A stretch of 64,000 nucleotides of DNA, from contig JBEKXL010000001.1 in NCBI GenBank assembly GCA_049512075.1, positions 160,001-224,000 on the forward strand, given 5' to 3'. The position numbers and the translations under genes were made by a program. The notes under the pieces were generated by a model. The model did not search any database and was not told where the DNA came from. It saw only the letters and a program-made list of their open reading frames with translations. Position 1 is the stretch's first letter; the number at the start of each line of letters is the position of its first letter. This DNA comes from Candidatus Bathyarchaeia archaeon (lineage in GTDB: Archaea > Thermoproteota > Bathyarchaeia > Bathyarchaeales > Bathycorpusculaceae). Shown one piece after another: positions 37,733-48,553 of this stretch.

Positions 37733-39031
37733 TTGCGAATTGGGTTCTTTGTCTGGGAATATCCACCTGCACTCGTCGGTGGTTTGGGCACGTATGCAGA
37801 GTATATAACGCGTCAATTCGTTGCCATGGGCAACGACGTGACAGTGTTCACCCTTAACCCGGGAAACCTGAAAACCCGTGAAATCCTGAAGGGCGTAGAA
37901 GTTCACAGACCCTTGATCGCCGACGCAAGCAATGTTTTCCCGATGTTCGTCATCGACGATCTGAAAAAGTGGGGCACAAACATACGCATGTTCAATGACA
38001 TATTCATCTATAATATTCTCAGCGCCTCAAAATTCATAAATAGCATGCTGAAAAAGGAAGGCTGCAACTTCGACGTAGTCTGTGTACACGACTGGCTGAG
38101 CAGCATATCCGGCCTCATGGTCAAGAACGAGACAAAAACACCAGTGGTTTTTCACGTCCACAGCACCGAGTGGGGTAGGGCAGGAGGGCAGGGATCAGAA
38201 GTCGTCTCACACCTCGAATGGGCAACATCCCAGAAAGTGGACAAGATCGTAACTGTCAGCCATGCCATGCATGAAGACTTGGTCAGACACGGATGGCCAA
38301 AATCCAAAATAAGCGTAGTCTGGAACGGCGTGGACCCTGAGTATTATAACCCAAGAAAATGCAAACCCGAAGATGTGGAAGCAATCCGTAACCGGTACGG
38401 AATAAAACCCGACGAAAAAATGGTTTTGTTCCTCGGAAGGCTCACCTGGGTTAAAGGAGTCACGGACCTCGTTCAAGCAATGCCCACAGTGCTAGCAGAC
38501 TATCCCAACACCAGACTGGTCATTCTCGGAAAGGGTGAACAACAGAATGACATTGTTGAAACTGCAAACAGACTCGGAATAAGCGAAAAAGTTGCTTGCA
38601 GGTTTGAATTCGTACCCGAAAAAGAGCGTATCCTGCACTATGCAGCAGCAGACGTCTGCATTTTCCCATCCACATACGAACCATTCGGAATAGTAAGCCT
38701 AGAAGCCATGTCGATGGAAAAACCCATAATCGTCGGAGCCCAAGGCACAGTTGGATTCAGAGAACAGGTAATTCCCACCGGGCCAGACCAGAACGGAGTC
38801 CACGTAAACGGTGGCAACCCGTCCGATATCGCATGGGGCATCAAAGAAACCCTATCTGACCCCGAAAGGGCCATAGAATGGGGAATAAACGGCAGAAAAA
38901 GAGTGATTCAATACTTCACGTGGCGAGAAGCTGCAGAACAGACACTTCGAATATATGAGACGGTGGAACATCCGCGAGGGCACGAGGAATTCAAACTCGT
39001 CGATTTGGTCGAGAAACTGACAAGATCATGA
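37733..39031 (+). CDS. GT4 glycosyltransferase (glycogen-synthase-like)
   Basis: WEYPP..VGGLG, HDWL, FLGRL..KG and EPFGIVSLEAMS motifs. Confidence 0.92.
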   Translation: MRIGFFVWEYPPALVGGLGTYAEYITRQFVAMGNDVTVFTLNPGNLKTREILKGVEVHRPLIADASNVFPMFVIDDLKKWGTNIRMFNDIFIYNILSASKFINSMLKKEGCNFDVVCVHDWLSSISGLMVKNETKTPVVFHVHSTEWGRAGGQGSEVVSHLEWATSQKVDKIVTVSHAMHEDLVRHGWPKSKISVVWNGVDPEYYNPRKCKPEDVEAIRNRYGIKPDEKMVLFLGRLTWVKGVTDLVQAMPTVLADYPNTRLVILGKGEQQNDIVETANRLGISEKVACRFEFVPEKERILHYAAADVCIFPSTYEPFGIVSLEAMSMEKPIIVGAQGTVGFREQVIPTGPDQNGVHVNGGNPSDIAWGIKETLSDPERAIEWGINGRKRVIQYFTWREAAEQTLRIYETVEHPRGHEEFKLVDLVEKLTRS

Positions 39032-39146
39032 AAAAGCAAAATGACTTTGCACGCGTCCCCCCTCATAGTCTATGACCCATAGACATAGAACGTTCTAGAC
39101 AGAAAGACGCGATCAAGTGCAGGCGTCGCCATAGTCGTTGCGCGTC

Positions 39147-39162
39147 CGAAAGGTTTATTAAA
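39147..39162 (+). promoter_or_regulatory. Canonical BRE/TATA promoter for the candidate ncRNA
   Basis: CGAAAG-GTTTATTAAA about 24 nt upstream of the 5' arm of the closing stem. Confidence 0.65.
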
Positions 39163-39184
39163 TCTCACTACTACATACATTGTA

Positions 39185-39347
39185 GTGAAGGGCTGCCGAC
39201 AGGCTTGGACTAGGCTTGTAGACTTGAGTCCTGACTTGCTTGTGATCCTCGAATCCCGGTCTTGTCGTGCATCGCGGCTCTTGACGCAGCTTGAAGCTCA
39301 GTGTTGGCAGCCCCCGGGCAAGATGCACTGTAGGTCTTATCCTTCAC
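39185..39347 (+). ncRNA. Candidate structured non-coding RNA with eight CUUG motifs (family not recognised)
   Basis: GTGAAGG/CCTTCAC and GCTGCCGACA/TGTTGGCAGC stems; 8 CTTG in 90 nt; upstream promoter. Confidence 0.6.
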
Positions 39348-39451
39348 ATTCAGTTCCTGGTTTGAAGAAAAACTGCAAAAACGGAGGATCCATGCTTAAT
39401 CGCTGGTTTTGATGAACGCCTTCAGGGTTGAACATTCATAAACTGGTTACG

Positions 39452-39898
39452 CTAGATTGCGCGCATGTTGGAAAGCTTTTCGACTATGTCAATCATTTCT
39501 TGATCAACGCTGACCGTTCGGGCAATGTTGGTTAGGGTAATCAAACCTATCAGCTTTCCATTCTCCACGATGGGGAGCTTCTTGATCTTCCTCTTAAACA
39601 TGAGTCTGGCAGCTTCGTGGATTTCCATGTCAGGGTTTCCCACGACAAGCTTCTGTGTCATGATGTCCGAAACAGCCAGTTTCCTAGGATCCTTTGCCTT
39701 CTCCAGGACTTTCTCCAGAAGATCTCTCTGAGTTACAATCCCTCTTGCTTCCCCATTGTCCTCGATAATCAAACATCCTATGTTATTCTTGTTCATCATT
39801 TTCACTGCATTGTCGACAAGGGTACAGGAGTTTACTTTCACCACTTCTTTAACCATGATGTCTTTGGCCTTCAAGAAGTCCGCCGATAGGGAAATCAT
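39452..39898 (-). CDS. CBS-domain pair protein
   Basis: AKDIM...GIVTQRD and VSDIM...KLPIV...GLITL. Confidence 0.9.
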   Translation of the reverse strand: MISLSADFLKAKDIMVKEVVKVNSCTLVDNAVKMMNKNNIGCLIIEDNGEARGIVTQRDLLEKVLEKAKDPRKLAVSDIMTQKLVVGNPDMEIHEAARLMFKRKIKKLPIVENGKLIGLITLTNIARTVSVDQEMIDIVEKLSNMRAI

Positions 39899-40380
39899 TC
39901 AATTATTCTTTTAAGGAATTGTGTGTAACAGGACCCTACTATCAACGGAATGGGCGCTGCCTACGTGATCTTGTTGCGTGTCTCGCTACATATGCCCTTC
40001 TTCTTATTAGAATCATACAGAAATCAAACCTGAGGATAACCTATGCTTAGCGCGTGCGCTCACATAAACGGCGACATTACATCGGATGTGTGTAAAAAGG
40101 GGACAGGGATCAGCTCTCGAAAGTATTTCTCATGACGCACAGCCTCCCACTCTCCGACGCCAACGTTTCAAGCGGTCAGAAGCTGGACAGCACGCGCACG
40201 AACTTCGCGCCAAAGATCCCGTGTGGCGAATACAAACACGCTGAAGTGCGCCAGAAGATAATGGCAAGTTTCGCCTCTTCACCTAGATCTTTCACGGCAC
40301 AGAAAATCTTAATTCACTATGCTTAAATCAAAGTGTGCTGTTAACTTCCGAAGACGAATCCTAAGTCGTTAATCCGACGC

Positions 40381-40480
40381 AGCGGGGTGGGGTAGCCAGG
40401 ATTAACCCGCTGGGCTCATAAAAGCTCAGTTGCTTTGAGAAACCCAGAGATCAGTAGTTCAAATCTACTCCCCGCTACCA
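40381..40480 (+). tRNA. Initiator tRNA-Met (CAT) with a 21-nt intron at 37/38 (40421-40441) and encoded CCA
   Basis: A1:U72 pair, GGG/CCC anticodon stem, TTCAAAT T-loop, bulge-helix-bulge CTCA/TGAG with AAGC/GCTT intron helix. Confidence 0.95.
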
Positions 40481-40660
40481 AAGCCTACACGAAACTTCTC
40501 TTCACAAAAGCTTACGTCATCTTCTCGCACCTTTAGGCTTCAGAGCGCTTGAAATATCCGCTTCCTTCAAATCTCTCAAGATGCTTGATACTTGATCTAA
40601 CACTAGAAGGAAATCAAAAGTATTAATACCTCAACGTTCCAAACCCTAATGTGACTTACT

Positions 40661-42454: not shown

Positions 42455-42685
42455 TTATCTGTTAATCTTCTTTGCTTCTCTCTCGGTTTCCCTGAGCATC
42501 AAAAGGTCCTGGATTCGCACGGGCCCTTTCACGTTGCGCGTTATAATGCGACCCTTGTCCTTCCCTTCAAGGATGCGTATTCTGACCTGCGAGATCTCGC
42601 CCGTAACACCAGTGCGTGCGATTACCTGAATCACTTCTGCCGGCGTAAGCTCTGCCTGCTCAGCCTCTCTCTCCTCTCTGCTCAT
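42455..42685 (-). CDS. rps28e: 30S ribosomal protein S28e
   Basis: RTGVTGE..QV and [18 protein letters not shown]. Confidence 0.96.
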
Positions 42686-43065
42686 TAGGTCGTTCCTCTT
42701 CTCAACTGTTCAACTCTCGTGACAATCTCTTTTACCAATCCCGCGGCGTCTCCTTCTTTGACGATGCACGCCGCTCCAGCAGGAACGTCAATACCTATGG
42801 CACTGCCAATCTTTTCCTTGCTCGGAACGAATATGTAGGGAATTTTCCTCTCTTCACACAGCAAAGGCAAATGGGCAACGACTTCCGGTGGCTGTACATC
42901 TTCAGCTATCACCACAAGTTTGGCCTGAGCTCTTTCAATAGCCTTCGTCGTCTCATTCGTGCCTTTCCTAACTGCACCTGTCTTAGCGACTATTTGCAGG
43001 GCTTCATAGGCGGCATCTGCCAGCTCTTTTGAAACTTCAAACTTCACATAGAATGGCTTGGACAT
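42685..43065 (-). CDS. rpl7ae: 50S ribosomal protein L7Ae
   Basis: [12 protein letters not shown] and [20 protein letters not shown]. Confidence 0.97.
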
Positions 43066-47382: not shown

Positions 47383-48553
47383 ATGAGAACCTCAAACACA
47401 CGCAAAATCCGTGCGTACTCTCTCCTAGCTCACGGAAAGGTTGACAAGATAAGCGATTTTGCTTATCGTGTCTGGTCTCAGACTGAGGAAGGCAAACACT
47501 ACATTGTTGTTAGGGAAGGGCTTGAGTGGAGATGCGAGTGTCCAGATTTTGTTTTCAATCATGTGGCTTGCAAGCACATTCATGCGGTTGAACAGATTAG
47601 GTTAAATGAGCAAGTCGCATTTCCTTCTGAGAAAGAGGGTGAGAACCTATGCAAAGAAGTGGAATCACCAGAGTCGGTTTGTAAATTCTGTGGCTCCGAG
47701 AACATCGTGAAGAGAGGGTACAGAAGCACTCAGAACGGAAAGGTTCAACGGTTCTTCTGCAACAACTGCAAAAGAAAATTGAATGAAGGCTACTCCTGAA
47801 ACAATCACGGTAGCTCTAGATCTGTACTTCAAAGGAATCAGTATGAGGGCAATCGTTGACCACATAAAGCAGTTTTATGGAGTAGAGGTTAGTCATGTGG
47901 CGATTTACAAGTGGATTCGCAAGTACGTTTCGATGATGAAGAAATATTGTGATCAGCTAGTTCCTAGAGTTAGCGGAATTTGGCACAGTGACGAAATGGC
48001 CTTGAACATAAAGGATTTGGACAATCACGACAGCTTGAGATGGGCTTGGAACGTGATCGACAACAAAAGTCGGTTCTGGCTTGCTAGTCAGATAACGGAG
48101 AAGAGGGAAATTGCTGACGCTAGGAAAGTGTTGGCTCAAGCCTCGACACTTTCGCAAACGAGACCTATGGCCGTTGTGACTGATGGATTGAGAGCTTATC
48201 AGGACGCGATACCCAAGGAGTTCTTCACTATGAAGGGGCCAAGGACTCAGCACGTTAGGATTCCGAACATTAGAGACAGGTCGAACAACAACATGGTTGA
48301 AAGACTTCACGGAACGATTAGGCAGAGGAACAAGGTTATGCGTGGACTAGATGATACGGAAACAGCACAGACAATGATGAATGGACTCAGAATCTACTAC
48401 AACTTCATGAGACCTCATATGGCACTAGATGGAAAAACTCCAGCACAAGAAGCAAGAATCGTCGATAGTTCAAAACCCGAGAATTGGCTCTCCCTAATCA
48501 AGAAGGCAAGTCAACACCAGATGTTTGAGGCACAGCCCAAGGACTCTCGCTAG
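47383..48553 (+). pseudogene. IS6-family DDE transposase with N-terminal SWIM and Zn-ribbon, split into two overlapping frames
   Basis: CECPDF..CKH (SWIM) and CKFC..CNNC in ORF1; HTH, WHSDE, VVTDG and NNMVERLHG in ORF2; frame change at ~47783-47799. Confidence 0.85.

Follow-up and report, generated by a model that had tools for sequence, protein, structure and literature searches.

A probable non-decoding RNA gene derived from tRNA-Pro in a lineage of Bathyarchaeia

Background

It is well established that tRNA genes have given rise to other RNAs in eukaryotes and in bacteria. The bacterial Y RNA YrlA, for instance, combines a tRNA-like module with an end helix and binds Ro/Rsr. Bathyarchaeia are abundant, uncultured archaea of sediments and peat, and their non-coding RNAs are almost unknown. 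In the archaeon Haloferax volcanii, tRNA-like elements called t-elements are described as expected substrates of RNase P and tRNase Z (PMC4326828). Here we analyze a 64,000-nucleotide (nt) window of a Candidatus Bathyarchaeia archaeon genome (GCA_049512075.1, contig JBEKXL010000001.1, positions 160,001 to 224,000), and in it an element at positions 39147-39321 of the + strand that compares with each of these systems in part.

We became interested in this locus because an earlier, sequence-only reading had proposed it as a new archaeal non-coding RNA with its own promoter, a closed multi-stem fold, and eight CUUG motifs that might titrate a protein. Our analysis leads to a different picture. 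On the comparative sequence evidence, the element is probably, though by no means surely, a single-copy, independently transcribed gene for a structured + strand RNA of ~130 nt that arose from tRNA-Pro and is now a non-decoding look-alike of it. The RNA was previously uncatalogued and has no Rfam family; we place it with the tRNA-derived or tRNA-like non-coding RNAs. In a search of the open-access literature, we came across neither a stand-alone archaeal regulator of tRNA origin nor any account of this RNA in Bathyarchaeia.

Results

A conserved single-copy block in one lineage

The window's own genome (G000; 2,725,246 bases, 99.76% complete) was compared with 40 relatives by blastn, which returned three genomes of the same genus: G002, which aligns along the whole 420 nt at 91% identity, and G004 and G001, in which only the core matches. 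In the genus alignment, the stretch from the TATA box through CCCCCGGGCAA is nearly invariant, with 92% identity in the core; identity falls to 74% once the flanks, which carry many substitutions and indels, are included, and conservation ends sharply at 39321.

A covariance model built from these four genus sequences (R1) and run over 151 family genomes found members in six of them, namely G000, G001, G002, G004, G021, and G101. The last two are full-length homologues from another genus that came into the set through R1 rather than through a sequence pattern. A seventh R1 match (G093) is a genuine tRNA-Pro(UGG) gene with an insertion and not a member. A pattern scan of 185,579 species genomes gave 37 loci, four of them in Bathyarchaeia (G001, G002, G004, G101); the other 33 are chance matches in high-G+C bacteria. 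Among 30 loci from a pattern scan of metagenome contigs, 19 are members (15 distinct sequences) with the same promoter and architecture, and 11 were dropped as chance matches without a promoter. The block from 39147, in the TATA box region, to 39321 is conserved in the six genomes and the 15 distinct metagenome sequences, and its flanks are not. The whole family thus has 21 sequences. One (L089) is identical to the window and was left out of the alignment (A4), whose 20 distinct sequences comprise six genomes and 14 metagenome rows; counts out of 20 below refer to it. The 20 sequences form four clades, A to D, with a mean column identity of 76%, and the window belongs to clade A.

The element is single-copy: blastn of 39100-39420 against G000 returned its own locus and weak partial matches at tRNA-Pro genes. 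Neither blastn nor a second covariance model (R2), built from all 20 sequences and run over 151 genomes of the order, found multiple copies in G000, so a miniature inverted-repeat transposable element or other repeat, a concern of the sequence-only reading, does not fit. No further element-like gene was seen among the R2 matches in the order genomes. As for antisense targets in G000, the same blastn query gave only matches of 15-35 nt, all at E of at least 0.1.

Features of the element and its surroundings, all on the + strand (P1 denotes the end helix, bp base pairs):

39147..39162, promoter with B recognition element (BRE) and TATA box, CGAAAG followed by GTTTATTAAA, kept while the upstream flank is not
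39185..39189, putative short 5' leader, placed by the spacing from TATA box to helix
39190..39226, tRNA-Pro-like 5' half (acceptor strand, D-loop UUGG, anticodon-stem strand, loop start)
39190..39201, 5' strand of P1, GGGCUGCCGACA, an acceptor-type helix lengthened by 5 bp to 12 bp
39218..39234, anticodon-arm-like hairpin GUAGA-CUUGAGU-CCUGA, 78% of alignment cells paired
39239..39265, candidate hairpin H3/P3 around the block CCCGGUCU (39255-39262)
39264..39278, hairpin GUCGUG-CAU-CGCGGC, predicted by RNAalifold on four genus sequences, with one-sided G-C/G-U changes only
39288..39301, predicted hairpin AGCU-UGA-AGCU followed by a 3-nt bulge CAG, or else the 3' strand of a helix with 39202-39206
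39302..39313, 3' strand of P1, UGUUGGCAGCCC
39314..39321, conserved single-stranded 3' tail CCGGGCAA
39341..39347, 3' arm of a proposed outer stem, outside the conserved element; CGGTCAC, TATACAT, and CAGACAT in three genus relatives

Descent from a tRNA-Pro gene

The 5' half of the element aligns without gaps to the tRNA-Pro(UGG) of G000, with 30 of 37 positions identical, so the earlier statement that the locus lacks tRNA hallmarks was wrong. When 39190-39226 is scored against the 43 tRNA-model matches of G000, tRNA-Pro(UGG) is best at 39, tRNA-Pro(CGG) follows at 35, and the best non-proline tRNA reaches 18; a blastn lead had already matched the same segment to tRNA-Pro genes of other genera at 80-86% identity. 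With R2, the window reaches 135.6 bits and matches in 82 other genomes lie between 23 and 36 bits, and the top matches that we inspected are tRNA-Pro genes in 14 of 14 cases, six of them with a ~30-nt intron in the variable region. Because the model cross-matches tRNA-Pro in this way, the family is homologous to it. The first seven nucleotides of P1 and their partner strand match the two acceptor strands of tRNA-Pro. By eye, 39249-39259 resembles the T-loop and a T-stem strand and 39302-39313 corresponds to the 3' strands of the T-stem and the acceptor stem, with the conserved CCCGG (39255-39259) equivalent to the 5' strand of the T-stem and the CCGGG of the tail to its 3' strand. Sequence comparison thus points firmly to a tRNA-Pro gene as the ancestor of the RNA.

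The tRNA-Pro(UGG) genes of several genera in the family are themselves unusual, carrying a non-canonical ~30-nt insertion that separates the anticodon arm from the T arm (L023 1508-1612; L122, L123, L125, L126, L127, L130). ARAGORN mis-names or misses some of them.

Promoter, strand, and coding status

The BRE/TATA promoter proposed by the sequence-only reading is present, although it starts at 39147 and not at 39148. In each of the 20 members, a TTTAT(T/A)A box precedes the first G of the closing helix by 36-38 nt, and this fixed spacing argues for a stand-alone gene for a non-coding + strand RNA with its own promoter, as had been suggested. By the usual geometry of archaeal promoters, transcription would start near 39184-39185, ~5 nt before the helix, and the resulting leader would read GUGAA/GCGAA, CGCAC, CGCUC, or GAGCA depending on the clade. 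Most members have a run of at least four T 14-44 nt past the conserved block; G000 and G002 are without one.

The strand assignment comes from wobble pairs in P1, where one pair is G-U in 9/20 sequences and another is U-G in 7/20. These would be A-C mismatches on the opposite strand, so the + strand is the RNA; the argument, first made from a single pair, holds in the family.

An open reading frame (ORF) of 75 amino acids spans 39185-39412, and several frames of the G+C-rich core lack stops, although the frames are not comparable between loci; a small protein might thus be encoded here. We find this scarcely credible. The variable columns of clade A number 12, 14, and 15 at codon positions 1, 2, and 3 (44 columns each), so that there is no third-position bias and none of the codon-level conservation that was looked for; compensated 1-nt indels occur in the element within the genus; the downstream third of the ORF (39322-39412) is not conserved; and the translation has no Pfam match. 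The region is non-coding. Its position is also not that of a riboswitch or 5' leader, as the next gene in the window is convergent (39452-39898, - strand) and the nearest downstream ORF on the same strand in other loci is 600-1700 nt away.

An end helix and tail under selection

The best-supported structural feature is P1. The sequence-only reading had paired GCTGCCGACA (39192-39201) with TGTTGGCAGC (39302-39311); this pairing is present and conserved, as part of a helix that is in fact 12 bp long (39190-39201 with 39302-39313). Across the 20 sequences, 99.6% of P1 cells are paired, a figure to be read with the knowledge that the search pattern fixed positions 1-7 and 9-10 and the outer eight 3' positions in the 14 metagenome rows, leaving only the inner pairs free there; G101 and G021, found by the model with no such constraint, agree with P1. 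Pair 12 is C-G in 16 sequences, U-A in two, A-U in one, and U-G in one, and pairs 8, 9, and 11 vary by wobble. Directly past P1, all 20 members have one to three C followed by CCGG(G)CA, even though the search patterns stopped earlier. Both the end helix and the tail are under selection. Two other stems of the sequence-only reading fared less well: the strands of the outer stem (GTGAAGG at 39185-39191, CCTTCAC at 39341-39347) are in place in the window, but the stem is not conserved, and the side hairpin AAGAT...GTCTT lies outside the conserved block.

Inside P1, the picture depends on the clade. In the anticodon-arm-like hairpin, pair 32-49 is U-A (9), C-G (8), or U-G (2), and a competing helix (alignment columns 37-42 with 55-60) is 88% paired with no double changes. 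P3 (39249-39251 with 39257-39259) is 96.7% paired and H3 (39240-39244 with 39261-39265) 77%, the latter weak in the window's clade; the block CCCGGUCU also occurs in the model-derived G101 and G021. Other clades have a hairpin of different sequence at the position of 39264-39278, and the two pairings of 39288-39301 are mutually exclusive, neither being kept in all clades in our reading of A4. CCCGG (39255-39259) could also pair with CCGGG of the tail (39314-39318) as a pseudoknot that would recreate the T stem of tRNA-Pro; both sides are invariant, so this pairing is without covariation.

The closed multi-stem fold singled out by the sequence-only reading is not distinctive in the window. The 163 nt of 39185-39347 fold with a minimum free energy of -54.6 against a dinucleotide-shuffle mean of -54.57 (z = -0.01; 96/200 shuffles at least as stable); z is +0.80 for the minus strand and -0.54 for the 129-nt core. 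Of nine sequences folded, five are significantly more stable than their shuffles: those from clades B and C (z = -3.0 to -3.9) and L068 (-2.3). The stable clade folds are predicted four-way junctions of P1, an arm derived from the D and anticodon arms, the H3/P3 arm, and, next to the 3' strand, a hairpin whose loop has 7 nt; different inner pairings are predicted for clade A and G101. The only structural claim that we make is that the end helix would close a multi-hairpin body, which in clades B and C appears cloverleaf-like.

One motif search is recorded for completeness. CUGA (39231-39234) followed by GUGAUCC (39241-39247) looks, by eye and against consensus motifs, like a D'/C' pair of the K-turn and C/D type (H/ACA was considered alongside); we rejected this reading as G004, G001, and L062 have not retained the GA dinucleotides.

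Could the block be a decaying relic, either a tRNA-Pro pseudogene or the scar of an element once integrated in a tRNA-Pro gene, with no function? Its distribution is patchy, to the point of absence from a genome of the same genus; CCGGGCA in the tail looks like the start of a second copy of the T-stem/acceptor strand of tRNA-Pro, as in partial duplications where elements integrate; in the window's clade, folds are no more stable than those of shuffles; and a probable insertion sequence (SWIM and DDE transposase) is 8 kb away. Yet a relic would not be expected to keep a promoter at fixed spacing in 20/20 members, nor a 12-bp helix maintained by compensatory and wobble changes over four clades whose flanks are unalignable. 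The conserved block also stops sharply at 39321, and clades B and C fold well. We therefore regard a relic as quite unlikely.

No longer a decoding tRNA

The Rfam tRNA model RF00005 gave no match at E<=10 over the element in local scans of 38950-39550 and 39100-40600, the second of which recovered the tRNA at 40381-40477 with 49.6 bits. Apart from that tRNA, the permissive local scans over Rfam gave only chance-level matches (IRES_Tobamo, IMES-1, TeloSII; E 4-8). A whole-window scan at gathering thresholds gave no match either, yet it also missed the tRNA at 40381-40477 and is not relied on. ARAGORN called nothing in the element at any genus locus. The RNase P RNA and signal recognition particle RNA of G000 are encoded elsewhere (C3:197264-197570 and C20:30495-30808).

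The tRNA at 40381-40477 (+ strand) is intron-bearing with a CAU anticodon according to ARAGORN with introns allowed; it scores the same 49.6 bits in a genome-wide search, and gathering-mode scans can miss tRNAs of this kind. More broadly, only ~36 tRNA genes of G000 pass the Rfam cut-off despite its 99.76% completeness, and its ARAGORN anticodon set is without several expected species, e.g., clear Asp, Lys, Gly(UCC), and Ser(UGA). Many of its tRNA genes probably have non-canonical introns or other odd structures. tRNA-like genes can thus escape both tRNA finders and Rfam.

What remains of the tRNA in the element no longer looks able to decode. An acceptor-type helix from the 5' and 3' ends is present, as the contiguous P1; that helix has taken up the 5' strand of the D stem, which therefore cannot form, and there is no T arm next to the 3' strand. 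The anticodon-like triplet is UGA in most of clade A, CGA in L084, UCA in L085, UGG in clade B, L066, and L068, and UAG in L087, and G101 has a different hairpin. Such changes between close relatives would not be tolerable in a decoder. tRNA-Pro genes with CGG, UGG, and GGG anticodons are all present elsewhere in G000.

It might still be argued that the element is an unusual functional tRNA, with several non-canonical introns or a split or permuted gene, that the finders missed: a nearly complete genome with so few recognizable tRNA genes must hide some, tRNA-Pro genes of relatives do have the variable-region intron, several members have a well-formed anticodon-like arm, and a clear tRNA-Ser(UGA) is missing from the calls. 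Against this stand the varying triplet, the absent T arm, and, in our reading of the alignment, conservation that is not concentrated in exon-like blocks able to assemble a cloverleaf. Simulated splicing points the same way. None of 8,211 single deletions gave an ARAGORN tRNA, and bulge-helix-bulge-guided removal of one to three introns from the 20 members gave one in 46,623 variants (a three-intron variant of G004), whereas tRNA-Pro was recovered from 6/6 intron-bearing control genes. A hidden tRNA is on this evidence very unlikely.

A circular RNA was considered as well. The only bulge-helix-bulge candidate common to the four genus sequences consists of the 12-bp helix, the 3-nt bulge, and a 4-bp helix. 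It was dropped: 3/4 sequences have no second outer helix, the motif is incomplete, and clades B-D are without the bulge arrangement. Removing the candidate "intron" leaves no tRNA.

The CUUG motifs

All eight CTTG motifs reported earlier are where they were said to be, and their density is beyond chance. CTTG occurs 0.59 times per 100 nt genome-wide, and this is the only 100-nt window with eight copies on either strand of G000. Their conservation in the 20 aligned sequences, by position on the + strand, is as follows:

39204, kept in 15/20; D-loop CTTG, also in tRNA-Pro genes
39215, kept in 9/20
39223, kept in 15/20; anticodon-loop CTTG, also in tRNA-Pro genes
39235, kept in 1/20
39239, kept in 11/20
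39261, kept in 16/20; overlaps a block fixed by the search pattern
39280, kept in 8/20
39290, kept in 5/20

The sequence-only reading built on this density the idea of a multivalent sponge that titrates an RNA-binding protein in the manner of CsrB/RsmZ. The density does favor it in the window's own clade, whose members have 4-8 copies (eight in G000, seven in G002). Across the family, the range is 3 to 8, with three in five of the six clade-B rows and in L061; only 3/8 sites are kept in at least 15/20 sequences, and two of these three are inherited tRNA-Pro positions. Of the relatives' conservation that the sequence-only reading anticipated, P1 holds, and most CUUG sites, like the outer stem, do not. 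Many of the replacements are CTCG, and counting CUCG with CUUG makes more sites persist. Several CUUG lie in predicted G-U-rich stems and not in loops, and together with the CTCG swaps these positions fit helix constraints better than binding sites displayed in loops. A CsrA gene (PF02599) was not found in G000, though the partner could be a different protein. We hold the sponge to be highly improbable: the multiplicity of CUUG is a recent, genus-level feature and not the design principle of the family.

Genomic context

A gene for a GT4 glycosyltransferase (432 amino acids, Pfam) ends 117-205 nt upstream on the same strand in 13/14 loci, several of which are near-identical samples; in the remaining locus (L068) the upstream gene is different and on the other strand. 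The synteny anticipated by the sequence-only reading thus holds upstream, but not downstream, where genes differ by clade; clade A has a convergent CBS gene, with a radical-SAM/SPASM gene and then L7Ae further on. Elsewhere in the order, seven genomes from six genera have a GT4 orthologue (75-85% identical) with a convergent gene immediately after it and no element, and G012, also without the element, has a different downstream sequence. Because its distribution is patchy, the element is dispensable as well as lineage-restricted, and its association with GT4 may reflect nothing beyond gene order passed down by descent.

This arrangement bears on the possibility that the element is a t-element, i.e., a tRNA-like signal cut by RNase P or tRNase Z that would, for example, set the 3' end of the upstream GT4 mRNA. 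The close same-strand GT4 gene is what one would expect in that case. The element, however, has a strong promoter of its own and no conserved RNA on either side (conservation stops at 39147 and 39321), the upstream gene of L068 is a different one on the other strand, and the GT4 orthologues of other genera do without it; a t-element has, in our view, little chance of being the right description.

Several observations concern the neighborhood itself. In G003, of the same genus, the element and the CBS gene are missing and a 97-nt tRNA (ARAGORN tRNA-Leu UAA; L095 2959-3055, - strand) lies downstream of GT4, which points to a local rearrangement. G000 has two further GT4 paralogues (C4:59381-60616 and C5:116533-117771; 72% and 54% identical), and in several relatives GT4 occurs in versions with a single in-frame stop. 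The gene for the K-turn-binding ribosomal protein L7Ae (42685-43065, - strand) is 3.3 kb downstream and recurs 0.9-3.5 kb downstream in clades A, C, and D; as we found no conserved K-turn in the RNA, we treat this proximity as coincidence. Two adjacent ORFs at 47383-48553 (+ strand), with a SWIM zinc finger and a DDE transposase (IS240-type / rve_3), are probably an insertion sequence.

Discussion

We propose that the family arose when a tRNA-Pro gene was rebuilt under selection. Kept from the ancestor are the promoter type, both acceptor strands, the D-loop UUGG, and an anticodon-arm-like hairpin. The D stem is lost, as its 5' strand now lengthens the acceptor helix, which has reached 12 bp; in place of the T arm there are two or three hairpins that differ by clade, and a conserved 3' tail of the form CC(C)GG(G)CA has been added. 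With its 12 bp, the end helix is as long as the acceptor and T stems of a tRNA stacked together, and on the strength of this tRNA-like length we propose that the transcript is trimmed by RNase P and tRNase Z, the enzymes that process tRNA ends. The mature RNA would then resemble a tRNA without decoding, and would bind either a protein that recognises tRNA or some other partner; both its processing and its partner are inferred.

A bolder version of this proposal is that the family is a new class of archaeal regulatory RNA, a tRNA mimic that docks on a tRNA-recognising enzyme or factor by means of the 12-bp helix and the 3' tail. The fast-evolving, G-U-rich (CUYG) arms would tune or multiply the binding, with the window's genus having reached eight CUUG. 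We regard this as an unlikely, tentative extension; if true, Archaea would have their first described case of a tRNA-derived regulator that stands alone.

Several points weigh against reading the element as a functional, tRNA-Pro-derived RNA gene. Its distribution is patchy: we did not find it in G003, a genome of the same genus, and in seven other genomes the sequence downstream of the GT4 orthologue did not yield it either. Clade A, to which the window belongs, folds no better than shuffles (z of -0.54, -0.75, and -1.60 in the three sequences folded), and neither does G101 (-0.15). Solid comparative support extends to P1 only, the inner helices being 75-78% paired and clade-dependent. Part of the apparent invariance (GGGCTGC.GA, CCCGGTCT, GGCAGYCC) was imposed by the search pattern on the 14 metagenome rows. 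Finally, trimming by RNase P and tRNase Z, although we think it probable, is pure inference, as is any partner.

With these points in mind, the family offers a case of a tRNA gene rebuilt under selection, in which the T arm and the identity of the anticodon have gone while the promoter, end helix, and tail persist. In practical terms, it provides a defined 21-member set with a covariance model, together with coordinates at which transcripts can be mapped.

The systems most like it differ from it in instructive ways. In Y RNA/YrlA, as here, a long helix between the 5' and 3' ends encloses a tRNA-related body that does not decode; in contrast, a TROVE/Ro gene (PF05731) was not found in G000, and the element has no Rfam Y RNA match. 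CsrB/RsmZ sponges share with the window's own copy the reiteration of a short motif in one small RNA; in the element, however, the motif copies are not conserved, many lie in predicted stems, and CsrA was not found. The t-elements of Haloferax volcanii are likewise tRNA-like structures in an archaeon that are not tRNAs (PMC4326828), but they flank another RNA as cut sites, whereas our element has its own promoter and no conserved neighbor RNA. The nearest comparison is with the tRNA-Pro (UGG/CGG) of the same organisms. The element differs from it in being without a D stem and a T arm, in its variable "anticodon," in ~50 extra nucleotides, and in its contiguous 12-bp end helix and conserved non-CCA tail; with it, the element shares the strong TATA promoter, both acceptor strands, the D-loop UUGG, and the anticodon-stem strand with the start of the loop.

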